From Clostridia bacterium (lineage in GTDB: Bacteria; Bacillota; Clostridia; Oscillospirales; CAG-272): a stretch of DNA of 64,000 nt. The translations under genes were made by a program, and so were the position numbers. The stretch is from positions 31,980-95,979 of the forward strand of contig JAFTME010000069.1 in the NCBI GenBank assembly GCA_017452545.1, in the 5' to 3' direction. Positions 15,004 to 50,837 of the stretch are shown here, in pieces. The notes beneath the pieces were generated by a model that saw nothing but the letters and a program-made list of their open reading frames with translations, had not been told where the DNA came from and ran no database searches. The first letter of the stretch is position 1, and each line of letters starts with the position of its first letter.

Positions 15004-18000
15004 TTACAGGAAGCTGAACAGAGTCATCTGATCCGTTTCGTCGATGTTATCCAGTACGTTGTTACGGCGAAGAATTTCAATGACAGCCTTAGTCAGCTTG
15101 GCGCGGATCTGCAGATCCTCGACCGAGAAGAAGGGCTCCTCGGTGCGCGCCTTTTCAATGTTCTCTGCCGCCGTATCGCCAAGACCCGGCAAGGACGAGA
15201 ACGGCAGTCGGATGGCACGGTCACCCTCGGGACGATAACAATGTGCCTCGGATTTATTGATATCAATGGGAAGGAACTTAATGCCTCTTGCATATGCCTC
15301 CATGACCAACTGGAAGGTCGAGATCGAGCTTTGCTCCTTGGGAGAAGCCTCTTTTCCTCGCTTCTCAACGTCCTTGATATAATTCTCGACGTATTTCTTT
15401 CCGCGAAGAACAATCTCGGCGTCAAAACCGTTGGGAGCTACGGTAAACATGGCTGCATAGAAAACCGTAGGCATATAGATCTTATACCAGCCAAGACGAA
15501 TGGCAGACATAACATAAGCAGCTGCATGTGCCTTGGGGAACATATACTTGATCTTTTTACACGATCCGATGTACCATTCGGGTACGTCATGCGCGCGCAT
15601 TTCCGCCTCCCACTCGGGTGTCAGCCCCTTACCCTTTCGGACGCTTTCCATGATCTTGAAGGACATGGCATTATCAAGTCCGTAGCGGATCAAGTCAAGC
15701 ATGATACCGTCACGGCATCCGATAACCTTGGAAATATCACAAATACCTTCCTTGATCAGATCCTGTGCATTTCCGAGCCAAACGTCCGTGCCGTGTGTCA
15801 GACCGGAGATCTGAAGAAGGTCAGCGAAGTTTTTAGGCTTTGCATCAATCAGAACCTGCTGCAAAAAGCGAGTACCCATCTCGGGGATTCCCCAGGTACC
15901 AACCTGGCAGCCGCCAATATCATCAGGAGAAATACCGAGCGGAGCGGTCGACTGGAACAGCTCGTAAATAGAAGCATCGTTCATTTTAACGTCCATTACG
16001 CTCGTACCGGAGTAACGCTCCAGCCACTTGTATTTGGTTGGCATATCGTGTCCAAGCTCGTCCAGCTTAAGCAGCGTATCATGCAGATACTCAAAGGTAA
16101 AGTGCGTGGTGACGATGTCGGATTTTGGGTCGTCCGCAGGATGCTGTACAGGACAGAAATCATAGATTTCGTATTCTTTGGGAACAACGACGATACCGCC
16201 GGGATGCTGACCGGTGGTACGCTTGACGCCCACGCAGCAGGAAACCAGACGGTTCATTTCGGAGCGGCTGAGCGATACGCCCTTTTCCTCCAGGTACTTG
16301 AGGATAAAGCCGTACGCCGTTTTATCCGCAACCTCTCCGATGGTACCGGCACGGAAGACGTTTTCCGCACCGAACAGCTCCTCAGTGTATTTATGGACCT
16401 TTCCCTGTACCTCGCCCGAGAAGTTCAGGTCAATATCGGGAGATTTATCACCGTAAAAGCCGAGGAAGGTTTCAAACGGGATATCATGTCCGTCGCCGAC
16501 CAGCTTGGTGCCACACTTAGGGCAGTTCGCGTCGGGCAAATCGAAGCCGGAACCGACGCTGCCGTCGGTAAAGAACTCGGAATGCTTACAATTGGGGCAA
16601 TAATAATGCGGCGGAAGCGGATTGACCTCGGAAATTCCCGCGCACGAGGCGACAAAGGAAGAACCGACCGAGCCACGCGAGCCTACAAGATAGCCTTGAC
16701 TTTCGCTATACCAAACCAGCTTTTGCGCAATCATATAAAGAACGGCAAAGCCGTTTTTAATGATGGACGTCAGCTCCTTTTCCAGGCGCTTGCCGACAAT
16801 TTCGGGCAACGGCTTGCCGTATTGACCCTCGGCATGCTCGTAGCAGATGCGCTGCAGATCCTCCTCGGCACCGTCCATGTGCGGTGTGAAGGTTCCCTTG
16901 GGGAACGGACGAATATCGCTCTCGATCATATCCGCGATCATGTTGGTGTTGGTCACGACGACCTCGTAAGCCTTTTCCTCGCCAAGGTAGGAGAATTCCT
17001 CCAGCATTTCCTCGGTCGTGCGGAGATACAAGCCGATGTCTCTGTCCGCATCCTTGAATTTCATACCGGCAAGCAGAATCTTTCTGCCGACCTCATCCTC
17101 GCGGTTGAGAAAGTGTGCGTCGCAGGTGGCTACGACCGGCTTACCGTACCGCTCACCGAGTGCGACGATGCGGCGGTTGAGATCGCGCAGCCCCTCGTCA
17201 TCCGCAATTTTCCCCTCCGCAACCAAAAAACGGTTGTTGCAAATGGGTTGGATTTCAAGATAGTCATAGAAATTGACCAGATCCTCGATGACCGCCTCGG
17301 GCTTGTTGTCCAGAATGGCCTGTACCAGCTCGCCCGATTCACAGGCAGAGCCTATGATCAGACCCTCACGGTACTTCTCAAGCTCGGTTTTGGGTATTCT
17401 CGGCTGACGGTGATAGTAATTGAGATAACTGAAGGAGACCAGACGATAAAGATTTTTCAAGCCAACCTTGTTTTTTACCAGCAGAACCTGGTGATAGGTC
17501 TTGAGCTTAAGCGGATTGGCATTGGCGAGCATTTCGCGCTGGAGTGCCGCATAGTCATGCAGTTCGCTTTCCTTCATTTTGTTGACCATGCAGAAGAAGA
17601 TCTGTGCAAGCATGTCGGCGTCATCGCAGGCACGGTGGTGATTAAAATCGCCAAGACCGTAATATTTGGCAACAACGTCCAGCTTATGAGATTTCAGATC
17701 GGGATTGATAAAGCGGGACAGCGCGACGGTATCCAGATATGCGTTCGGGAACGGCAGCCCACACAGCTCGGCATTGTAACGGATAAATCCAACGTCGAAT
17801 TCGGCATTGTGTGCGATCAGAAGCTTAGGCTGCTTGCCCTCTTCGTTGCCGATAAACGCGAAAAATGCCTCCAGCGCCTGCTTGACCTTGGGTGCATCGG
17901 CTACCATTTCATCGGTAATAGAGGTCAGCTTTACGATATCCTCGGGGATCGGAACCTCGGGGTTGACAAAGGTGTTAAAGCTATCAATGACCGCACCGTT

Positions 18001-19473
18001 TTTGATACGAACCGCTCCGATCTCGGTAATTTTGCAGGTTCGGTTGGAAAGACCGGTGGTTTCGATGTCAAAAACGATGCATTCATCGTCAAAGGCGCCC
18101 TCGTATCTGCCAAACAGAGCGCTCGCCTTGTCATCGACGAAATACCCCTCCATACCGTAGATCACCTTCTGCCCCAGCTTTTCCGATGCCAGCATCGCCT
18201 TCTGATAAGCCTGTACGTTGCCGTGGTCGGTAATGGCGATAGCAGGCATTCCCCATGCATTGGCGGTCTTAACGACGGTATCCGGTGGGATCAGCGCGTC
18301 CATAGAGGACATCGTCGTATGAAGATGCAGCTCCACGCGCTTGACGGGAGCGTTATCGACGCGCTTGATCTTTTTGATTTTCATCGCAGCACTGTAGAAA
18401 AAGGAGAAGTCAAGATCAAGTCCATTTTTATGCGATTCTTTTTTTATGTAGCCGTAGAGCGCGACAGACATTCCGTCCTTGATCGTATCACCGAGCTCCT
18501 TTGCTTCCTCCGGTGTCAGTCCGTACTTTTTGACCTCAATGGAGGAATTTCCGTCAAACACAGAGAAAACAACGTTATACTTATCGCCGGAGCGCGTGGT
18601 ATCGGCGGTATAGCCGAACACGTCACCGACGATGACAAGTCCGCGCTGCGCCACATTGAAGGAGGCGATAACCGCAGGCGTGCCAATTTCAAAGGCGTCG
18701 CCGATCAGTACCTCGGGCTCCCGAAGATCAAATTTAGAAAAGCCAATGGTGCAAATTCCGTCCTCAACGACGGCTTGCGGCGGCGTTTCGGTATAAATGG
18801 AAGAGATACGAGGCAAGACCTGCTTGTCATCCCCTCCGCTCTCGCCGCCATCCCTTGCGTAATCCGGATTGGCGCGACGCGTTTCCATCATGCGGTTGTA
18901 TTCCACCTCGGCCTTGGCGATCTGCTGATCGATCGTTTCCAAGCGACGGTTGCGGCTTTCCTCTACGGTGTTGCGGTAGAGCTGCTGGCTGTGCTTGATC
19001 TCAACATGGCACTGCAGACCGAATTCGCTGAAAATAATCCTCTCAATGACCTGCGGTGTCTGTCCGTTTTCCATCAGACGAATACCGCCGTCCACCTCAA
19101 ATGGAACCTCGATCACCAGCGATCGCTCATTCAGCGTCGCTTTATACTGTGCAAAAAAGCCGCGCGCGACAATGCCGATGCGCTCGGTTTCTTTGAGAAT
19201 TTGCGGAATATACTCCTGCGTAAACAGAGTTTGCGGATAATGAGGCAGTATTTTGACATACTGCAGGTCGTACGCACGGCAGATCTCCTCCTCGATGGTG
19301 TAAAGATCGTCCTTATCTACAAGCGAAGGAAAGCTTGCACAAATTTCAAGGAGGCGCTTTTCCTTATCCGCACGCACGGAAAAATCGGTCACATTGCTCA
19401 AAATGCCGTCAGCATATGCGCTCGGCTGATATTTTTTCAGTATTTCAAATATAGATCTTTGGTTTTCTTGCAT
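15004..19473 (-). CDS. polC: DNA polymerase III alpha subunit, PolC type
   Basis: 1489 aa. PHP domain (VELHLHTTMSSMDA), inserted DEDDh exonuclease (FDIETTG, HNAEFD, HRACDDA), Zn finger (CPNC...CPKCG) and polymerase core. Confidence 0.97.
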   Translation of the reverse strand: MQENQRSIFEILKKYQPSAYADGILSNVTDFSVRADKEKRLLEICASFPSLVDKDDLYTIEEEICRAYDLQYVKILPHYPQTLFTQEYIPQILKETERIGIVARGFFAQYKATLNERSLVIEVPFEVDGGIRLMENGQTPQVIERIIFSEFGLQCHVEIKHSQQLYRNTVEESRNRRLETIDQQIAKAEVEYNRMMETRRANPDYARDGGESGGDDKQVLPRISSIYTETPPQAVVEDGICTIGFSKFDLREPEVLIGDAFEIGTPAVIASFNVAQRGLVIVGDVFGYTADTTRSGDKYNVVFSVFDGNSSIEVKKYGLTPEEAKELGDTIKDGMSVALYGYIKKESHKNGLDLDFSFFYSAAMKIKKIKRVDNAPVKRVELHLHTTMSSMDALIPPDTVVKTANAWGMPAIAITDHGNVQAYQKAMLASEKLGQKVIYGMEGYFVDDKASALFGRYEGAFDDECIVFDIETTGLSNRTCKITEIGAVRIKNGAVIDSFNTFVNPEVPIPEDIVKLTSITDEMVADAPKVKQALEAFFAFIGNEEGKQPKLLIAHNAEFDVGFIRYNAELCGLPFPNAYLDTVALSRFINPDLKSHKLDVVAKYYGLGDFNHHRACDDADMLAQIFFCMVNKMKESELHDYAALQREMLANANPLKLKTYHQVLLVKNKVGLKNLYRLVSFSYLNYYHRQPRIPKTELEKYREGLIIGSACESGELVQAILDNKPEAVIEDLVNFYDYLEIQPICNNRFLVAEGKIADDEGLRDLNRRIVALGERYGKPVVATCDAHFLNREDEVGRKILLAGMKFKDADRDIGLYLRTTEEMLEEFSYLGEEKAYEVVVTNTNMIADMIESDIRPFPKGTFTPHMDGAEEDLQRICYEHAEGQYGKPLPEIVGKRLEKELTSIIKNGFAVLYMIAQKLVWYSESQGYLVGSRGSVGSSFVASCAGISEVNPLPPHYYCPNCKHSEFFTDGSVGSGFDLPDANCPKCGTKLVGDGHDIPFETFLGFYGDKSPDIDLNFSGEVQGKVHKYTEELFGAENVFRAGTIGEVADKTAYGFILKYLEEKGVSLSRSEMNRLVSCCVGVKRTTGQHPGGIVVVPKEYEIYDFCPVQHPADDPKSDIVTTHFTFEYLHDTLLKLDELGHDMPTKYKWLERYSGTSVMDVKMNDASIYELFQSTAPLGISPDDIGGCQVGTWGIPEMGTRFLQQVLIDAKPKNFADLLQISGLTHGTDVWLGNAQDLIKEGICDISKVIGCRDGIMLDLIRYGLDNAMSFKIMESVRKGKGLTPEWEAEMRAHDVPEWYIGSCKKIKYMFPKAHAAAYVMSAIRLGWYKIYMPTVFYAAMFTVAPNGFDAEIVLRGKKYVENYIKDVEKRGKEASPKEQSSISTFQLVMEAYARGIKFLPIDINKSEAHCYRPEGDRAIRLPFSSLPGLGDTAAENIEKARTEEPFFSVEDLQIRAKLTKAVIEILRRNNVLDNIDETDQMTLFSFL

Positions 19474-19575
19474 TTTTACATCTCCATTCGTATGTTGACT
19501 TTACGTCATGCTTTGTATTAAAAAGCAGCGCAGGGAGTCAAGCATCGGTTTCAAAATTATTCTGTCGGTTGATTT

Positions 19576-34703: not shown

Positions 34704-35954
34704 TTATGGTAAATCGACGGTTACGCAAATGGCACGCGCCTGTCCGCAAAGCAGCACCTCATCGTCGCTGTACGGCAGCACGGTAAGATAGCTTCCTTCG
34801 ATCGGCGCGGCAGAGATCGGAAATACAGACGCCTGCTCATAAATACTCAAGGCGTTCTGAAAGCGTAGGCAAAGGGTATCTCCCAGTAAAACGGCATCGA
34901 GCACGCGCTCGTCCGTTACCATATTATAGCTCATATCTCCGTTTTTGTCAAATACCGTTACGTTGGTACCTGCGTTATAATTATTGGAACGCGAAAGCAT
35001 CGTACATCCGTCTGCATTCAGCGTCACGGTATCGACCGTATCCGGATCGACGGGATAAAAGGCAAGCTCTGTTCCCTTTTCATCAAGACAATACAGACCG
35101 AGCGTTGTATACAGCATCAGAATATCCTCACTCGTATACGACAGCGCGATCGGATAGCAATCCTGCAGAGTTACCGTTTGGTATTGCTGCTCCCCGGGCG
35201 TGCACAGCGCAAGCTCGGTTGCAAGCTGACCTACGTTTGAGCTGACGCTTGCGACAGCCATCTGCCTGCCGCTTGGACGGATCGCCGCGCAAACGGCGTA
35301 CTCCTTGAGATATAGCGTATTCACCGGTCGGAACATATCGTCATACAAAACGATTTCGGATGCGTAGGTGGTTCCGTCCGTAATGATGCAATAATAACCC
35401 GCATCGGAAATGGCAGCCGAGCGGATCGGCGTTGTCGTTTTTTTCTCGTGAATGGAGGAAAAGGAATTGTACAGCGCGTACTCGTCACCGCCGAGATCGT
35501 ATGCCAGAAGATAGCGTCCCGAGGGCAGCAGCCGCGGCGTGTGGTAGGTAACGGAGTCGGTGTAGCTTTCTCGCCCCGTCGCCGTAAACACCGTCAGATT
35601 TTCTCTGCCAAGCACCGCCAAGCCTCCGCGGTAAAGCGCGTAATCGTTGTTCTCATCGGAGGCGTAGGTTAGTGATTCCGATGCCCCGGCCTCACCAACG
35701 ATGACCGAGGTGTTGAGGTCCTTGATAAAATACGTCATGTTCTCAATCGAGAGACGGTCGGTTCCCGTCAGCAGCGTGACCGCAAGAAAGACACCGAGCA
35801 TCATATAAATGACAAACTGTGCCGAGGCAAAGCGAAGCGACATCTCACGGTAATACGGTGTTTCCGCCACCTCACCGGTGATCGGCTGTGTGAGAGTAGC
35901 GTGGGGCGTCGTTCCCCGAAGCAATCGGAAAAAACGGTCCTTAAGACTCATCAT
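34704..35954 (-). CDS. Hypothetical single-pass membrane protein (DUF5711-like, tentative)
   Basis: One TM (FVIYMMLGVFLAVTLL) followed by about 340 aa of beta-rich sequence with repeated blade-like segments. The family assignment is from memory only. Confidence 0.55.
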   Translation of the reverse strand: MMSLKDRFFRLLRGTTPHATLTQPITGEVAETPYYREMSLRFASAQFVIYMMLGVFLAVTLLTGTDRLSIENMTYFIKDLNTSVIVGEAGASESLTYASDENNDYALYRGGLAVLGRENLTVFTATGRESYTDSVTYHTPRLLPSGRYLLAYDLGGDEYALYNSFSSIHEKKTTTPIRSAAISDAGYYCIITDGTTYASEIVLYDDMFRPVNTLYLKEYAVCAAIRPSGRQMAVASVSSNVGQLATELALCTPGEQQYQTVTLQDCYPIALSYTSEDILMLYTTLGLYCLDEKGTELAFYPVDPDTVDTVTLNADGCTMLSRSNNYNAGTNVTVFDKNGDMSYNMVTDERVLDAVLLGDTLCLRFQNALSIYEQASVFPISAAPIEGSYLTVLPYSDDEVLLCGQARAICVTVDLP

Positions 35955-40334: not shown

Positions 40335-40835
40335 TTAAACCTGATTGTAATAGGATGCCAGACGCGAGGTGCCGCTGTGCGCGTGCGTAACCGCAACTGC
40401 GAGCGCATCCGCCGTATCGTCGGGCTTGGGCGGCTTTTCCAGCCCCAGCATCATGGTGACCATGGTAATGACCTGCTTTTTCTCTGCCCGTCCGTAACCT
40501 ACGACCGACTGCTTAACCTGCAGCGGCGTATATTCCGCGATGCTCAAGCCGCAGCGCTGAGCGGCAAGCAGGATGACGCCGCGCGCCTCGGCAACGCGGA
40601 TCGCCGTCGTTTGGTTGGTGTTGAAGAACAGCTCTTCCACCGCCATCGCCACCGGCTTGTATTTCTGAATGATTGCCGTCAGCTCCTCAAAAATGGTATT
40701 GAGTCGCTGCTGCGTCGTATGCTCCTTCGGCGTTTGGATCGAACCGTAAGCCAAGGTCTTGAATTTGAAGCCGTTATATTCTATAACCCCCCAGCCGACA
40801 ATGGCAATTCCGGGGTCAATTCCCAAAATAATCAA
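40335..40835 (-). CDS. ruvC: Crossover junction endodeoxyribonuclease RuvC
   Basis: (L)IILGIDPGIAIVGWG catalytic start. TTG at 40835 with a GAGGTG RBS gives the typical length of about 166 aa; the track ORF begins at 40868. Confidence 0.9.
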   Translation of the reverse strand: MIILGIDPGIAIVGWGVIEYNGFKFKTLAYGSIQTPKEHTTQQRLNTIFEELTAIIQKYKPVAMAVEELFFNTNQTTAIRVAEARGVILLAAQRCGLSIAEYTPLQVKQSVVGYGRAEKKQVITMVTMMLGLEKPPKPDDTADALAVAVTHAHSGTSRLASYYNQV

Positions 40836-41027
40836 GTAAGACACCTCGCTCCGCTTCATTTTTCGCAAAAATATCCATGATACCTATATCTTGACATTAT
40901 ATCATACCACAAAATCAGGAATAAGTCAAATATATATTGAAAACTTTCATAAAAAATTCACCAATAACACAAATTTTTCCAAAGACCTGCTCCGATAAAA
41001 AATTTAAGTAAAAAATTAAGTAAACGC

Positions 41028-41056
41028 TTGCTTTTTCCTATCAATTCATGTATAAT
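41028..41056 (+). promoter_or_regulatory. Sigma-A-type promoter of the large lipoprotein gene
   Basis: TTGCTT (41028-41033), 17-nt spacer, TATAAT (41051-41056). Confidence 0.5.
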
Positions 41057-41108
41057 GATAGAAAGGATTGCCCATGGGCAATTTTTATTTCAGGAAGGAG
41101 TGTTCCCT

Positions 41109-44100
41109 ATGAAAAAAATGTTTCGAACGGTCGTCCTTCTGGTGCTGTGCCTCTCACTTGTGATGAGTGCATTTGTAGGCTGCAAAACACCGGAAGAAGA
41201 CGATCCCCCTGCAAAGGAAATGCTTACTATCATTGACGGAGCAACCGATTATAAGGTGATCCGCAGTGATTTGAGCACCAAGGATGTCACCATGGCAGCA
41301 GTCGATCTGCGTAAGGCTCTGATTGCCGCAACCGGTGTCGAAATCGCCATTGAATCCGACTATGTAGAGCGTGGTAAGGAGATCCCCGCCGACACGCTTG
41401 AAATCCTGGTAGGCGCTACCAACCGCGCCGAAAGCGAGCAGGTGCTTGCAACGCTTGGTGAAAACGAATACAGCATCAGCGTCGTCGGCAACCGCGTCGT
41501 TATCGTCGGCTCGACGGACGAAGCGACCATCGCCGCAGTCGATGCGTTCATTTCTCAGATCCTCGGCTACAACAAAGAAACCGAAACCTATGCAGTCAAT
41601 AAGCTGCAGATGGAAAAGGATTATTCCAAGAAGGCAACCTTTGTTCCTGCCCCTGTTGAGGATGATCCCTATACTCCTCCCGTGTTTACTCCCGTAGAGG
41701 GCGAGCAGAACAAGCCCACCTTCTCCCCCGCCAAGTATATCGTTCCTACATATTCCATTGAAAACGGCCTGTACGTTCAGAATTACAAAGCGTTTGATCT
41801 GCAGGGTGTCAGAACCACCTTCCAGACGGGCGCATCCTACGCGGACAGCCGTGCGATCAACTCCGACTCCATCATGGTCTATTCGACCTCTGCCGGAACC
41901 TTCAAGAGCTGGTACGACTCCGAGGATTTCGTCATCGATATGATGATCGCGATCAACCGTGCCAACCAGAACTACCTTAATCTGGATCCCGACAACAAGA
42001 ACGATATCCAGACCGACTCTGCCGGCAACTATCTCGAGCACTCTACCGGTGGCTCCTGGTATATGGTTCCCTCTGAGAACTGGATCGAGTACGTTTGGTC
42101 CACCATGCTGCTGCCCATGATCGAGCAGTATCACCCTCAGACCATCGCGCTGGAGGAGCCCGAGATGTGGATCCGCTCCGGCTATTCTCAGACTTTCAAG
42201 GACGAATGGGAAGCGTTTTACGGTGAGGAATGGGAAGCTCCCAACTCCTCCGCAGCGGCCAACCTGAAGGCAAACCTGCTCAAGACTTATTTGTTTGAGC
42301 GTATCCTTGAGGAGCTGTGTGCCCGCATTGAAGAGGTCTCCCCCAATACGCAGGTCTACATTGCAACGCACAGTACCGTCAACTACGCAGCCTGGTCGAT
42401 CACAGCAGGTCTGAATACCTATCTGGCACTGGATTGCCTGGACGGCGTTATCGGTCAGACCTGGGCAGATACGCATAATTCCAAGTTCCCCTACAATGGC
42501 TCTTCCATTAACGATAACTTCACCAATGCTTTCATTGAGTATTCCTCCTACGTAGACTCTGTAGAGGGCACCAATTTCTATGCACTGGCTGACCCGATGA
42601 TGGATAACACCAGCAGAACCGAAGAGGGCTGCCAGTATATGTACCGTCAGTCTATCGCAGCGCAGCTCATGCAGCCCGAGATCCATCGCTTTGAGATCCT
42701 TCCCTGGGTCGACCGCGCATTTGAAAACGTTTCCGGCGCGTACCGCACGGTACAGTCCTCCATCTTTGCGATGCTCAACGATCTGGGCGGCGAGGAGGTC
42801 ACGCTGAGAGCAGGTACTCCCGGCATCGCATATCTCGCATCCGATTCTCTGTCCTGGATGAACACCGGCGCCGGCTGGGCTTACAACCCCACCGACGGTA
42901 TGTACGGTCTTTGCGCACCGCTGGTTCGTGATGGCATTCCCGTCAAGATGAAGGCGATGGAGCAGATCTACACCGCAGAGGATCTCAGTGGCGTCACGCT
43001 GCTGCTGGCAAGCTTTGATACCTCTGTTCCGCTGACCGAAGAGGTCAATGTGGCAATCGCAGATTGGGTCAAGGCAGGCGGTACGCTGCTCTACGTTTCC
43101 GGTTATAACCAATATTGGGATATCGACGATTATTTCTTCTGGGCGGATGACATTACGCCGCTGTATAACCTCTTGCGTCACCTCGGTCTTGAGAACATCA
43201 AAGTCAAGACGACCGATAACGGCGTTCAATCCAACTCCCGCCTCTCCGCTGTGGATGACTACCTTGAAATCTTCAACGGTCACACACTTACCTCCTACGC
43301 TGCCGGCGCGATCACCTTTGAGGGCGCCGAGACGCCTCTGCTTAAGGCAGGCGATAAGACGATCGCGTTTGAAGAAAGCGTCGGCAAGGGTCAGATCGTC
43401 GTATGCGGTATTCCCACCGCTGCATTTGCCGTCTATAAGGGCGGTGCCCCCATGCTCCGTACGCTGGTCGAGTATGCACTGGATTACACCGACATGAACT
43501 ATGTCTCCTCCGATATGATGGTCGTTAAGCGCGGCAAGTACGTTATCGCACACGCGTTTGATACCGCAGAGGAGCTGGAAGGCACGTACATCAATCTCTT
43601 CGACCCTTACCTTTGTGTCATGGAGGATCCCACCGTTCCCAAGGAGGACAGCCTTGTTCTCGTTGACATCACCGACATTGATCTCTCCGTTCCTCGCCTC
43701 GGATTTACCTCCGGTGAGCTGAAGGGTGAGGTTGAGGAGACTGCAAACACCACGACCTACGTTGTCACCGGCGCCGGCAACTCTATTGTTGCAAACCGCC
43801 TGCTGGCTCCCAAGGGCAAGTATCCGCAGAAGGTCACCATCACCAACGAGGACGGCAAGGAGCAGGTCATGCTCTCCTTCGTATGGGACGATGACTCCAA
43901 CTCCGTCCGCTTTACCTTCGACGCGGCCGTCAAGCCCTTGACCGTTACCGTAACCTGGGGCACCGAGAAAACGCTGCTTTCCTCTGCCGGCTATGTATAT
44001 GAAGAGGTCATGATCCTGGCAAACAATCAAAACCTTGATGCAGATTATCTGATCACAAACACCGCACAGGCAAACAACGGCCTGCGCTACTGCGACCTTG

Positions 44101-44972
44101 CAGGACAGCTTGTTTATAAGTTTGATACCACCGAATATGATTCTCCCGTCTACCACTTCTCTACCTCTCAGAACTACATCTTTGAGGTTTCCGGCGACGG
44201 TAAGAACTGGACTATGATCGCCGATTATTCCAAGGGTGGCACAGTTCCGCATATCCGTGATGCAAGCAACGCTACCACCATCGTTATCGATCCCATCGAT
44301 TATGAGGACGTGGACGACTCCGGTACCCTTTACGTTCGCGTACGCAACAGCAATACCTCGATGGGCTGGGGCGGTACCGTATCCAGAATCGTTATCCGTC
44401 ATAAGGTAGAGGCTGAGGCTACTACCGGTGAGACCGGCGAGTGGCTGGTCGGCATTAACCCGACCTCCGCAATCGACGACAAGGGCATTTCTACTCCTGC
44501 TGCACAGGCAGACGAAAAGAAGTATCTGGTTAAGTCCGCAAACGGTATCAACACCTACCACCGTAAGGTCATGACCAACGCAAGCAACCTCGACCTTGAT
44601 TTCATTGTCCTCAATACGGCTGCATCCAACCCCAGCATTCGCTTCTGCGACAATGTCGGCCAGGTTGTTTACAAGTTCGATCTGAGCGATATGAAATCCT
44701 TCGATCTCTCGCTCCGCATTTATCAGAACTATCTGCTCGAGGTCAGCACCGACAACAAGAACTGGGAGGTCGTAGCCGACTATTCCCAGGGCGGCACGAT
44801 ACCGCATTTGACCACCGGTGGTAATGACGTAACCATCGAAATCGACGTATTCGAGTATGCAGACAAGGGTACTCCCTATTTCTACGTGCGCCTGTCCAAT
44901 ACCAATACCGCTATGGGTTGGGGTGGCTCGATCCGCTATTTTGAAATGGATTACACCAAGCCTGCGAAATAA
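41109..44972 (+). CDS. Large secreted lipoprotein of unknown function (1287 aa), glycoside-hydrolase-like architecture suspected
   Basis: GGAAGGAG RBS. Signal peptide plus lipobox (LSLVMSAFVG-C). N-terminal alpha/beta domain reminiscent of GH N-terminal domains, a central region, and two C-terminal repeat modules. Confidence 0.85.
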   Translation: MKKMFRTVVLLVLCLSLVMSAFVGCKTPEEDDPPAKEMLTIIDGATDYKVIRSDLSTKDVTMAAVDLRKALIAATGVEIAIESDYVERGKEIPADTLEILVGATNRAESEQVLATLGENEYSISVVGNRVVIVGSTDEATIAAVDAFISQILGYNKETETYAVNKLQMEKDYSKKATFVPAPVEDDPYTPPVFTPVEGEQNKPTFSPAKYIVPTYSIENGLYVQNYKAFDLQGVRTTFQTGASYADSRAINSDSIMVYSTSAGTFKSWYDSEDFVIDMMIAINRANQNYLNLDPDNKNDIQTDSAGNYLEHSTGGSWYMVPSENWIEYVWSTMLLPMIEQYHPQTIALEEPEMWIRSGYSQTFKDEWEAFYGEEWEAPNSSAAANLKANLLKTYLFERILEELCARIEEVSPNTQVYIATHSTVNYAAWSITAGLNTYLALDCLDGVIGQTWADTHNSKFPYNGSSINDNFTNAFIEYSSYVDSVEGTNFYALADPMMDNTSRTEEGCQYMYRQSIAAQLMQPEIHRFEILPWVDRAFENVSGAYRTVQSSIFAMLNDLGGEEVTLRAGTPGIAYLASDSLSWMNTGAGWAYNPTDGMYGLCAPLVRDGIPVKMKAMEQIYTAEDLSGVTLLLASFDTSVPLTEEVNVAIADWVKAGGTLLYVSGYNQYWDIDDYFFWADDITPLYNLLRHLGLENIKVKTTDNGVQSNSRLSAVDDYLEIFNGHTLTSYAAGAITFEGAETPLLKAGDKTIAFEESVGKGQIVVCGIPTAAFAVYKGGAPMLRTLVEYALDYTDMNYVSSDMMVVKRGKYVIAHAFDTAEELEGTYINLFDPYLCVMEDPTVPKEDSLVLVDITDIDLSVPRLGFTSGELKGEVEETANTTTYVVTGAGNSIVANRLLAPKGKYPQKVTITNEDGKEQVMLSFVWDDDSNSVRFTFDAAVKPLTVTVTWGTEKTLLSSAGYVYEEVMILANNQNLDADYLITNTAQANNGLRYCDLAGQLVYKFDTTEYDSPVYHFSTSQNYIFEVSGDGKNWTMIADYSKGGTVPHIRDASNATTIVIDPIDYEDVDDSGTLYVRVRNSNTSMGWGGTVSRIVIRHKVEAEATTGETGEWLVGINPTSAIDDKGISTPAAQADEKKYLVKSANGINTYHRKVMTNASNLDLDFIVLNTAASNPSIRFCDNVGQVVYKFDLSDMKSFDLSLRIYQNYLLEVSTDNKNWEVVADYSQGGTIPHLTTGGNDVTIEIDVFEYADKGTPYFYVRLSNTNTAMGWGGSIRYFEMDYTKPAK
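44022..44405 (+). repeat. C-terminal module copy 1 (about 128 aa) of the lipoprotein
   Basis: NLDADYLITNTAQ..RYCDLAGQLVYKFD..QNYIFEVSGDGKNWTMIADYSKGGTVPH..YVRVRNSNTSMGWGG. By eye it aligns with copy 2 at roughly 40-45% identity. Confidence 0.8.
44577..44954 (+). repeat. C-terminal module copy 2 (about 126 aa) of the lipoprotein
   Basis: NLDLDFIVLNTAA..RFCDNVGQVVYKFD..QNYLLEVSTDNKNWEVVADYSQGGTIPH..YVRLSNTNTAMGWGG. Confidence 0.8.
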
Positions 44973-44984
44973 AACAGCATAAAA

Positions 44985-45030
44985 GCCTTGTGGCTGCCTC
45001 GCAAATGCGAGGCAGCCACAAGGCTCTTTT
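44985..45030. terminator. Strong bidirectional terminator
   Basis: 18-bp perfect stem: GCCTTGTGGCTGCCTCGC-AAAT-GCGAGGCAGCCACAAGGC. A-run upstream and T-run downstream. Confidence 0.85.
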
Positions 45031-45039
45031 ATTGAGTAA

Positions 45040-45963
45040 TTACTTCAAAAATCCGTTGACGATCTGCTCCTCAGCCTCAGCCTCAGTCAAGCCAAGCGTC
45101 ATCAGCTTGGTCAACTGCTCGCCTGCGATCTTACCGATGGCAGCCTCGTGGATGAGCGAGGCCTCCACATGGTTTGCCACGACCTCAGGGATGGCGCTGA
45201 CACTGGCGCTGTCCATGATAATGGCATCACATTCCGAATGTCCCATGCAGCGATTGTTTCCGCGAATGTTGGAAATAAATATCTGTCTGGAGTTTTCCTT
45301 GGCGACCGAGCGCGATACCAGATTACAAGCGCAGCCCTCGCCGTTCATATCGACCGTAAAATCGGTTTTTGCCAGCTGCGAGCCGTGCGTCATGATCTTC
45401 TCACGAATGGTCAGTGAAGCGCCTGCGGCAAGCGTTGCCGTCGTTTTTCTCTCGGTGGAATCGACACCCTTGATCTGCGTCGTTTCCATCTCCATGGTGG
45501 AATCCTCCGCCATCTCAATGACCGTGTGCGGGTTCATGATGCGCTGTCCGTTTCCATCGCCGTCACCATAGTGCTTTTCGACGTAGCGAACCTTTGCACC
45601 CTTGCCGACGAAAAAGGAATGAATGCCGTCGTGGCGGGATTCTTGATTGCCGCAGTTATGAATACCGCAGCCCGCAATAATGGTCACATCGGCGTCCTCG
45701 CCGATAATAAAATCGTTATAGACCATCTCCGTAAGACCGCTCTGGCTCAGAATGACGGGAATATGAACGCTTTCATTTTTTGTTCCGGGGCGAATGATAA
45801 TATCAATGCCCTGCTTGTCCGTTTTGGTTACAATATCGATATTGGCAGTGGTGGAACGAGCCACGCTGCTGCCATCCGAACGAATATTATACGCTCCCTC
45901 GGGAACGCCGTGCAGGTCTGCGACCTCGCGCAAAAGCTGCTTTTGAATTGCATCAAGTGCCAT
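45040..45963 (-). CDS. sufB: SufB/SufD family Fe-S cluster assembly protein
   Basis: SufBD beta-helix domain similarity (…IIAGCGIHNCGNQESRHDGIHSF…). It lies immediately downstream of sufC. Confidence 0.85.
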   Translation of the reverse strand: MALDAIQKQLLREVADLHGVPEGAYNIRSDGSSVARSTTANIDIVTKTDKQGIDIIIRPGTKNESVHIPVILSQSGLTEMVYNDFIIGEDADVTIIAGCGIHNCGNQESRHDGIHSFFVGKGAKVRYVEKHYGDGDGNGQRIMNPHTVIEMAEDSTMEMETTQIKGVDSTERKTTATLAAGASLTIREKIMTHGSQLAKTDFTVDMNGEGCACNLVSRSVAKENSRQIFISNIRGNNRCMGHSECDAIIMDSASVSAIPEVVANHVEASLIHEAAIGKIAGEQLTKLMTLGLTEAEAEEQIVNGFLK

Positions 45964-45977
45964 TTATTTGTCCTCCT

Positions 45978-46712
45978 TTACGAAAGCTTGTCCAGAAGCG
46001 TAGGACATGCGGCGGAGGAACGCAGCAGCTCGGGCAGAACCTCCTCGCGGTCTCCGACCGCACGCAGCTTACCGTCCGCGACGACAATGATCTTGTCCGC
46101 GATATTCAAAATACGCTCCTGATGCGAAATGATCAGAATAGAGCCGTTGATCTTGCTGTGCATTTTCTCGAAGACGGTGATCAGATTACCAAAGCTCCAA
46201 AGGTCAATGCCCGCCTCGGGCTCATCGAATACAGACAGCTTGGTGCCGCGCGCCAGAACGGTTGCGATCTCAATTCTCTTGAGCTCACCGCCCGAAAGGC
46301 TGGCGTCTACCTCACGGTTGATATAATCTCTGGCACACAGGCCAACCTCGCTCAGATAAGAGCAGGCCTCGGTGATGGTAAGCTTGCGACCTGCAGCAAG
46401 GTTGATCAGATCGTTGACGGTGATCCCTTTAAAACGCACCGGCTGCTGGAAGGCGAAGCTGATGCCAAGCTTTGCGCGCTCGGTAATACCAAGATCGGTC
46501 ACATCCTCTCCGTCGAGCAAAATCTGTCCCGATGTCGGCTTGACAATGCCGGCAATGATCTTTGCCAGCGTGGATTTTCCGCCGCCGTTCGGACCCGTGA
46601 TCGCAACAAAACGCTCACTGATGGTAAAACTGACGTCCTGTAATATTTCTTTATCTCCGCTCTCGCCGTTTTCCAGCGGAACGCGATAGCTTACGTTTTT
46701 TAACTCTAACAT
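45978..46712 (-). CDS. sufC: Fe-S cluster assembly ATPase SufC
   Basis: Walker A GPNGGGKST, signature LSGGELKR, Walker B LSVFDEPEAGID. Confidence 0.9.
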   Translation of the reverse strand: MLELKNVSYRVPLENGESGDKEILQDVSFTISERFVAITGPNGGGKSTLAKIIAGIVKPTSGQILLDGEDVTDLGITERAKLGISFAFQQPVRFKGITVNDLINLAAGRKLTITEACSYLSEVGLCARDYINREVDASLSGGELKRIEIATVLARGTKLSVFDEPEAGIDLWSFGNLITVFEKMHSKINGSILIISHQERILNIADKIIVVADGKLRAVGDREEVLPELLRSSAACPTLLDKLS

Positions 46713-50512: not shown

Positions 50513-50837
50513 AAAAAAAGCACGCCGTGCTGCAAAACGAGACCATACACCTCAAAATCGAACGTCACCCCCACGCGATACCGCAACCTCTGCTCAAAGC
50601 AGGCTGCCTTGCGGCACACCGGATCAACTGCTTAATGCTGCTTGGTTCCCCACCTGACATGGTTCACAGCCTCCGATTGCGCAAGACCCGCTTCTCAACA
50701 CAGCGGTTAACGGCTCGTCCGTAAAGGATCGGCCCTCAGAAGAGGAATCACCCCCTGCTGTAGCGGATTTCAGGTACAGGGCTCCGCTGCTTCCCCGGCT
50801 GGTATGGCCTCGTTTCGCAGCACGACGCTGCTCACAA
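50513..50837 (-). ncRNA. ffs: Signal recognition particle RNA, long Bacillus type with Alu domain (precursor-length transcript)
   Basis: On the minus strand, helix-8 motif GUCAGGUGGGGAACCAAGCAGC (50647-50668) plus GGUGUGCCG. The Alu-domain stretch AGCCGGGGAAGCAGCGGAGCCCUGUACCUGAAAUCCGCUACAGCAGGGGG (50751-50800) closely resembles B. subtilis scRNA. The 5' (50801-50823) and 3' (50527-50551) ends pair. A U7 run follows. Confidence 0.85.

Follow-up and report, generated by a model that had tools for sequence, protein, structure and literature searches.

The subject of this report is a gene, called X here, on the + strand at 41109..44972 of a 64,000-nucleotide stretch of DNA (the window) from an uncultured gut Clostridia bacterium of the CAG-272 lineage (contig JAFTME010000069.1, positions 31,980 to 95,979 of the forward strand). 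The gene starts with ATG and encodes 1287 amino acids (aa) plus a stop. Its product is identical to GenBank MBQ7319313.1, which is titled 'MAG: DUF4350 domain-containing protein [Clostridia bacterium]' at NCBI (MAG, metagenome-assembled genome). An earlier note, made from the nucleotide sequence alone, had described X as a lipoprotein of unknown function inserted between ruvC and the suf genes. The open reading frame (ORF) and all the peptide strings quoted there are present. We regard X, with a probability of about 0.6, as a cell-surface, lipid-anchored glycoside hydrolase (GH) of an uncharacterised GH42/GH35-like family.

Domain architecture of X

The N-terminus of X, MKKMFRTVVLLVLCLSLVMSAFVG-C25-KTPEEDD, matches the Gram-positive lipobox pattern, and the lipoprotein signal proposed earlier was thus found with Cys25 as its cysteine. 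Residues 36-960 were modelled with AlphaFold2 with the use of 79 family sequences. The model has a mean predicted local distance difference test score (pLDDT) of 94.5 and a predicted template modelling score (pTM) of 0.84. The following parts of the product were distinguished:

41109..41183, + strand: lipoprotein signal peptide (residues 1-24) and predicted lipidated Cys25, by lipobox pattern match
41220..41648, + strand: N-terminal alpha/beta domain (residues 38-180), pLDDT 95.1 when modelled alone, with Foldseek matches in the PDB
41649..41744, + strand: Pro-rich linker (residues 181-212), poorly conserved, with the lowest pLDDT (10-residue block means 59-82)
41745..42794, + strand: (beta/alpha)8 barrel (residues ~213-562), putative catalytic domain, with eight strand/helix units in DSSP
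42795..43493, + strand: domain II (residues 563-795), glutamine amidotransferase (GATase)-like alpha/beta domain, homologue of domain II of GlmA and of the GH42 trimerisation domain
43494..43973, + strand: domain III (residues 796-955), beta-sandwich, all-beta in DSSP and aligned with GlmA domain III by hhalign
43992..44402, + strand: C-terminal repeat 1 (residues 962-1098), discoidin or F5/8 type C-like; F5_F8_type_C at E 0.034, below the cut-off
44556..44957, + strand: C-terminal repeat 2 (residues 1150-1283), discoidin or F5/8 type C-like; F5_F8_type_C at E 0.01 when searched alone

The N-terminal domain folds like the N-terminal domains of GH20, GH84, GH115 and GH67 enzymes (8PXU, 3GH4, 4H04, 6PWI, 2CBI, 7PXQ, 5BY3 and 1L8N; Foldseek E 3e-6 to 1e-3; TM on the query up to 0.66). 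This agrees with the earlier suggestion of a domain of the kind that stands ahead of glycoside-hydrolase modules. The match to Pfam Glyco_hydro_20b (E 0.022) was below the cut-off. Unlike in GH20, GH84, GH115 and GH67 enzymes, a 32-residue Pro-rich linker lies between this domain and the barrel of X. The domain is joined to a GH42/GH35-like barrel, not to one of GH20/GH84 type, and many family members do without it. Neither Pfam nor the top 50 core fold matches of X revealed a GH20 or GH84 catalytic domain. The likeness to DUF4838 proteins (GH163/GH185, PF16126), also suggested earlier, was not borne out. These are surface enzymes with a barrel, like X, and GH163 carries a C-terminal F5/8 type C module (PMC10570127). 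In X, however, PF16126 gave no match at E<=1, and the fold matches listed included no such structure. Judged by its sequence, X is not a DUF4838 protein.

The two C-terminal repeat modules seen earlier share 47% identity over 125 aa (E 6e-42). With the whole of X, F5_F8_type_C scored 22.6 bits against a cut-off of 28.2. A profile of the X repeats matched the neuropilin b1/b2 discoidin domains (E 0.0015), and precomputed PF00754 or PF22633 matches exist in several X homologues. Judged by sequence, the repeats are probably discoidin/CBM32-like modules (CBM, carbohydrate-binding module), which is the least secure of the domain assignments. Every member of the family has the barrel and domains II and III; the N-terminal domain is optional, being absent from many members, and the number of C-terminal repeats is 0, 1 or 2.

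Core fold and putative active site

The core fold was compared with known structures by Foldseek, and the top 50 matches were considered. The best matches of the whole three-domain core were structures of GlmA, an archaeal exo-beta-glucosaminidase of GH35 (8oug, 6jow, 5gsl and 5gsm; E 9.5e-24 to 6e-21; 11-13% identity). The next matches, at E 2e-17 to 1e-15, were GH42 enzymes (3tts, 5e9a, 4uzs and 4oif), the GH164 structure 6t5o and the GH35 glucosyltransferase 7vkw; 5xb7 was also among the GH42 matches. Identity of the core fold matches to X was 10-14%. In the model, X has the domain order of GH42, namely barrel, GATase-like trimerisation domain and beta-sandwich, and the GH42 beta-galactosidases (3TTS, 5E9A, 4UZS, 4OIF and 5XB7) share this order, GATase-like domain included. 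The GH164 beta-mannosidase Bs164 (6T5O) and the Ignavibacterium GH35 beta-1,2-glucosyltransferase (7VKW) have an X-like architecture (E ~1e-17 to 1e-16; target TM 0.52-0.60), but at 10-12% identity no sequence-level relation of either to X was detected. The catalytic residues of both are Glu/Glu. The earlier note had overlooked the barrel, so that a fold of catalytic-domain type at residues ~213-562 is an addition to it. The amidotransferase-like stretch that it did point out (residues 629-665) falls within domain II, whose homologues are domain II of GlmA and, in GH42, the trimerisation domain.

Sequence comparison detected a relation to GlmA in domains II and III. The family profile matched 6jow domain II among the PDB sequences (E 2.9e-5). 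Hhalign aligned domains II-III with a GlmA-type alignment at 96.6% probability (E 6.9e-10, 312 columns); the aligned span was 562-922 of the first sequence of the family alignment (X residues 597-957) against GlmA 470-786. Domains II-III of X are thus homologous to those of GlmA, and they are the only part of the core with a relation detectable by sequence. Hhalign against one single GlmA sequence gave no usable alignment. The GlmA barrel sequence for such comparisons was obtained through a split gene of Thermococcus indicus (L004 2613-4966), where GlmA is called as two overlapping ORFs of 463 aa (barrel) and 321 aa (domains II-III). The split reflects a frameshift, a pseudogene or a fault in the assembly.

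The whole of X, searched as a single sequence against Pfam, NCBIfam and PDB, gave sub-threshold matches only, and the earlier statement that no characterised family can be assigned still holds. There was no match of the whole protein at E<=1 to Pfam GLMA_2nd, GLMA_C, GH35 (PF01301), GH42 (PF02449) or PF08532, and domain III had none in Pfam. DUF4350 (PF14258) scored 17.9 bits with whole X and 21.7 bits with domain II alone, both under its cut-off of 30.4; it was matched (E<=1e-3) by 4 of the 48 wider-family representatives.

Of the eight barrel strands, seven have near-invariant residues at their C-terminal ends or immediately beyond, as located in the AlphaFold2 model and by conservation:

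beta1: Q239
beta2: Y258
beta4, 42153..42158, + strand: E349-E350 in the motif EEPE, at the Asn-Glu acid/base position of clan GH-A
beta5: H421
beta6: Q450 and W452
beta7, 42591..42605, + strand: D495-P-M-M-D499 directly after the strand, at the nucleophile position of clan GH-A
beta8: W533 and R536

Conservation was assessed in 113 representatives that are 23-42% identical to X. D499 is kept in all 113; E349, H421 and D495 in 112; E350, Q450, W452 and R536 in 111; and W533 in 110. The beta4 motif of X is I-A-L-E-E-P-E; the catalytic motif of GH20 is H-x-G-G-D-E. In clan GH-A, beta4 terminates in Asn and the acid/base Glu, and beta7 in the nucleophile Glu. By strand position and conservation, X has Glu349-Glu350 and Asp495 instead of this signature. 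Both catalytic positions differ, and therefore the classical clan GH-A mechanism is not simply transferable to X. At the position where every related family has the nucleophile Glu, X has Asp, which is a signature of its family and not a local oddity. The catalytic roles of E350 and D495 are suggested by the strand positions in the model and by conservation.

In GlmA, the acid/base is Glu179 and the nucleophile is Glu347; instead of the Asn it has Asp178, to which the protonated C2 amine of glucosamine is bound (PMC6566704). Both proteins have an acidic residue immediately ahead of the beta4 Glu (Asp178-Glu179 in GlmA, Glu349-Glu350 in X), and in the model the carboxylate pair of X is analogous in position to that of GlmA. 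At beta7, X has Asp495 where GlmA has the nucleophile Glu347, and the two barrels are not alignable by profile methods. Unlike GlmA, X is predicted to be a secreted lipoprotein, and it has an N-terminal domain in addition and a pair of lectin-like modules at the C-terminus. X differs from GH42 enzymes in having no PF02449 or PF08532 match, in its Glu-Glu and Asp catalytic positions, and in being extracellular and modular. X is most like, and partly homologous to, the group of GH35-GlmA, GH42 and GH164. It falls outside this group at the catalytic domain, because no family hidden Markov model (HMM) matches it and both catalytic positions differ.

Family, genomic setting and expression signals

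The family of X was collected by an exhaustive HMM search with a barrel-only profile (E<=1e-3) and clustered at 50% identity. It comprised at least 770 clusters, and 325 at E<=1e-30. A scan of one genome per species gave 78 loci, mostly in uncultured Clostridia, Eubacteriales and Oscillospiraceae MAGs from ruminant, horse, rabbit and human guts. Other hosts were Victivallales, Paenibacillus, Armatimonadota and a few archaeal MAG fragments. Three to four X paralogues per MAG were common (L009/L017/L042/L043; L014/L020/L048; L023/L030/L031/L041; L060/L061/L064/L069), and in one case two paralogues share one contig. The family is expanded in uncultured gut Clostridia. In databases, the relatives are named hypothetical, sugar-binding or SLH-domain (surface-layer homology) proteins.

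The lipobox pattern was found in 65 of 120 family proteins; by eye, most of the Clostridia members shown carry [AG]-C. Further secreted members have ordinary signal peptides. In the wider family, about a third of the members (37 of 112) have no N-terminal extension and are probably cytoplasmic. Distant members carry CBM9, SLH or dockerin modules. A dockerin-bearing paralogue (L069 7623-12573) is followed by a second dockerin protein of 739 aa, and the homologue P0110 (L091 5265-14905) is divergent from a 1500-aa DUF5722 protein. Both neighbours are uncharacterised and probably carbohydrate-active partners.

In Paenibacillus nasutitermitis, P. mendelii and Cohnella nanjingensis, a CBM9/SLH-bearing homologue adjoins a conserved cluster (L062 5-7339, L066 528-7750 and L006 15353-25271). 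The cluster encodes a putative binding protein of ~540-560 aa, a GH38 alpha-mannosidase and a GH2 enzyme; in Cohnella it also has ATP-binding cassette (ABC) permeases and a regulator with GntR and periplasmic-binding-protein domains. The P. spongiae homologue adjoins sugar ABC transporter genes. In a complete Fimbriimonadales genome (L074 5398-11741), the homologue lies between genes of the UDP-glucose/GDP-mannose dehydrogenase family and for a PMT_2-type membrane glycosyltransferase, a possible sign that in this lineage it is connected with envelope glycan metabolism. The context of P0117, P0073, and the Victivallales and Armatimonadota loci gave no consistent sugar-utilisation signal.

In the window, X is divergent from ruvC (40335..40868, - strand), as had been noted, and convergent with sufBD and sufC. 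Upstream of X, on the - strand, are ruvC, an S-adenosylmethionine (SAM) methyltransferase gene and ecfA/ecfA'/ecfT; downstream, also on the - strand, are sufBD, sufC, recR, ybaB and dnaX. The remaining large genes of the window (polC, a P-type ATPase gene, a Clp ATPase gene, comEC and polA) are housekeeping genes, and X is the only large gene of another kind, as stated before.

The earlier description of X as inserted between ruvC and the suf genes has to be abandoned. Its GC content (0.53) and third-position GC content (GC3, 0.66) equal those of the neighbouring genes. In a relative with a 67%-identical X, the gene is likewise divergent from ruvC, and in an Oscillospiraceae MAG with a 52%-identical X the entire order ruvC-X-sufBD-sufC-recR-ybaB-dnaX is kept. 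The comparison of related genomes that had been proposed as a check was made by tblastn on the loci of the one-genome-per-species scan, and it showed a conserved arrangement. Upstream of X, ruvC was found in nine distinct loci (L001, L009, L011, L012, which is the same as L003, L013, L014, L018, L028 and L033), together with the methyltransferase gene and ecfA wherever the locus extends far enough. Downstream, sufBD-sufC was found in five (L011, L012, L014, L018 and L033), and in L013 sufBD follows X and the contig ends there. In the related MAGs that keep the order ruvC-X-sufBD-sufC, X is 53-57% identical. A recent insertion of X was rejected on these grounds. Across the surveyed loci, X is 53-71% identical, whereas its neighbours are mostly 70-88% identical (a partial ruvC in L011, 66%). 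With the order conserved and X more divergent than its neighbours, X is a long-standing, faster-evolving resident of the ruvC-suf interval.

According to a mechanical ORF list, X is apparently the sole + strand gene in a run of - strand genes at ~19.5-55.5 kb, and over the window as a whole the GC skew of the + strand is negative. Transcription of X thus probably runs head-on to replication, and its faster divergence may be related to this. The signals around the coding sequence are:

41028..41033, + strand: -35-like hexamer TTGCTT, read directly; 3/6 matches to TTGACA
41051..41056, + strand: -10 hexamer TATAAT with TG immediately before it, read directly; 17-nt spacer to TTGCTT
41063..41086, + strand: 5' untranslated region hairpin AAGGATTGCC-CATG-GGCAATTTTT, core palindrome 41067-41082, between the -10 box and the ribosome-binding site
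41093..41100, + strand: ribosome-binding site GGAAGGAG, ending 8 nt upstream of the ATG
44984..45025, both strands: hairpin terminator with a 19-bp stem (13 G-C pairs), a 4-nt loop and a T-rich tail

The promoter TTGCTT-17-TATAAT of the earlier note stands in position and spacing, with TTGCTT a poor hexamer: only 3/6 positions match TTGACA, and it was missed by a consensus promoter scan for this reason. Orthologous X loci have TTGACA, TTGACT or TTGCTT with the same spacing. TATAAT is at the equivalent position in 8/8 orthologous loci examined, and the preceding TG in 5/8. An upstream in-frame TTG at 41028 opens the mechanical ORF (41028-44972), and the first ATG is at 41109.

The leader of X folds with -13 kcal/mol (z -2.0) and matched no Rfam family. 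A hairpin of unrelated sequence is at the equivalent leader position in 7/9 orthologous loci (L001, L003, L013, L018, L028 and L033 among the leaders). It may be a 5' mRNA stabiliser or an operator. A terminator or attenuator was rejected as a conserved feature of the leader: a U-run lies 3' of the hairpin in the window and is absent, by eye, from L003, L018 and L033. The strong terminator after X was found as noted, with a stem of 19 bp and not of 18. It reads as a hairpin on both strands and therefore probably serves the convergent sufBD as well.

A few further observations concern the surroundings of X. A 1217-aa antisense ORF runs through X (41154..44807, - strand) and one of 1426 aa through polC (15241..19521, + strand). 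The counts of TTA/CTA/TCA are 0/0/1 in X and 0/0/0 in polC; these codons are the reverse complements of stop codons, and the antisense frames are open because the host genes are nearly free of them. The two ORFs were therefore rejected as real genes. The SUF system at 45040..46712 (- strand) looks like a two-gene unit of a 307-aa SufBD-core protein and sufC, and five related MAGs have the pair conserved beside X. A DUF5711 protein (416 aa, 34704..35954, - strand) and a CvpA-like protein belong to the conserved block upstream of X in related MAGs. A bacterial large signal recognition particle RNA (RF01854, 170 bits) at 50543-50807 (- strand) is the only Rfam match of the window at the gathering threshold.

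Function of X and alternative explanations

The proposal of a cell-surface glycan-processing protein, made in the earlier note, is the best supported of the readings considered. It builds on the observed fold, residue positions and conservation, homology of domains II-III, secretion signal and gene order. X would be exported, lipidated at Cys25 and held outside the membrane by its acidic linker. The two discoidin-like modules, and perhaps the N-terminal domain, would bind glycan. Domain II would mediate oligomerisation as in GH42 and GlmA and help to shape the active site. The glycosidic bond would be cleaved at the C-terminal face of the barrel, where E350 would be the general acid/base and D495 the other catalytic carboxylate. 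E349 would read the C2 substituent of the sugar, in the position occupied by Asn in GH42/GH35 and by Asp in GlmA. The accessory modules of the family (CBM9, SLH, dockerin and F5/8 type C) are typical of extracellular carbohydrate-active enzymes and support this reading. As to the substrate, dockerin, CBM9 and the herbivore-gut distribution suggest a plant-derived glycan, the GH38/GH2 neighbours suggest one containing mannose, and the acidic residue before the acid/base Glu would, by analogy, also suit a cationic (amino) sugar.

Several results weigh against a glycoside hydrolase. The barrel alone had no match in Pfam at E<=5 and none in NCBIfam, and its family profile matched 0 PDB sequences at E<=10. 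Hhalign of the barrel against the GlmA/GH35 barrel gave 4-4.5% probability and a mis-registered alignment, with both the family and the wider 113-member alignments and in both local and global mode. The barrel has Glu-Glu for Asn-Glu at beta4 and Asp for the canonical nucleophile Glu at beta7. X and its orthologues are lone genes among housekeeping genes, outside any sugar-utilisation operon. In the literature library searched, no paper on members of the family, and with it no report of activity, was found.

The alternative that survives best, itself unlikely, is an enzyme like the substrate-assisted hexosaminidases or endo-N-acetylglucosaminidases. Here one residue of the pair E349-E350 would orient the 2-acetamido group of the substrate as nucleophile and the other would be the acid/base, and D495 and D499 would only bind sugar hydroxyls. 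Carboxylate pairs of this kind are Asp-Glu in GH20 and Asp-Asp in GH84, and X has an adjacent pair at the end of beta4. The N-terminal domain, with its GH20/GH84 likeness and the weak Glyco_hydro_20b match, points the same way, but it is absent from many members and is also found in GH67 and GH115, which are not hexosaminidases. The GH38 and GH2 neighbours in Paenibacillaceae would fit the breakdown of N-glycan cores, and F5/8 type C modules at the C-terminus are known in GH163 too (PMC10570127). The core of X argues otherwise. Its best folds are GH35, GH42 and GH164, with no GH20, GH84, GH18 or GH85 in the top 50; domains II-III are homologous to GlmA; Pfam gave no GH20, GH84 or DUF4838 match; and a near-invariant Asp stands exactly at the beta7 nucleophile position.

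A barrel that is not a glycosidase at all is a little less probable again. Its activity could be that of a transglycosylase on envelope glycans of the cell itself, or that of a hydrolase or isomerase with E349, E350, H421, D495 and D499 as metal ligands; in both cases the GH42-type accessory domains would have been kept. The conserved carboxylates and one His could bind metal, and 7vkw of Ignavibacterium, among the closest folds, is a transglycosylase. The fixed position of X among housekeeping genes, its own promoter, and the Fimbriimonadales homologue between UDP-glucose-dehydrogenase-like and PMT_2 glycosyltransferase genes would also suit such a role. However, the top fold matches are all members of glycoside hydrolase families and the accessory modules are carbohydrate-binding or cellulosomal. 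In Paenibacillaceae the homologues lie in sugar-uptake and GH clusters, and several paralogues per genome suit nutrient acquisition.

The missing canonical Asn-Glu and Glu, together with a surface location and two lectin-like modules, could also mean a non-catalytic adhesin or glycan-binding protein on a dead glycosidase scaffold. We consider this improbable because of the conservation on the catalytic face: about ten polar or aromatic residues are kept in 110-113 of the 113 representatives at 23-42% identity, apparently cytoplasmic forms included. The reading of X as an ordinary GH42 or GH35 beta-galactosidase that has merely diverged, or as a gene recently inserted after horizontal acquisition, is close to refuted. 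Despite the GH42-like three-domain architecture and transcription against all neighbours, X has no PF02449 or PF01301 match, differs at both catalytic positions and is extracellular, whereas GH42 enzymes and GlmA act inside the cell. It also equals its neighbours in GC and GC3 and adjoins ruvC in 9 related loci, with the full order in 5 and a sixth ending after sufBD.

Within the preferred reading of X as a surface glycoside hydrolase, a more specific proposal is tentative. X and its relatives may form a new GH family that arose from the GH35/GH42 three-domain lineage, with re-tooled catalytic residues, and expanded in uncultured herbivore-gut Clostridia, where it would stand for a glycan-degrading activity so far overlooked. 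Its status as a candidate new family was judged on Pfam, NCBIfam and PDB, and a recent CAZy classification is possible. The re-tooled residues may bring a new specificity or mechanism. X is not a categorically new kind of system: the scaffold is known, and it is a regular event for new glycoside hydrolase families to turn up on known folds. If the members are active, a beta7 Asp with a beta4 Glu-Glu on this GH42/GH35-type scaffold would be instructive as a natural departure from the clan GH-A mechanism. Current pipelines label the family 'hypothetical', 'DUF4350' or 'sugar-binding'. If its members are catalytically active, the family is a sizeable blind spot in the annotation of carbohydrate-active enzymes in rumen and hindgut Clostridia, Victivallales, Paenibacillaceae and Armatimonadota.

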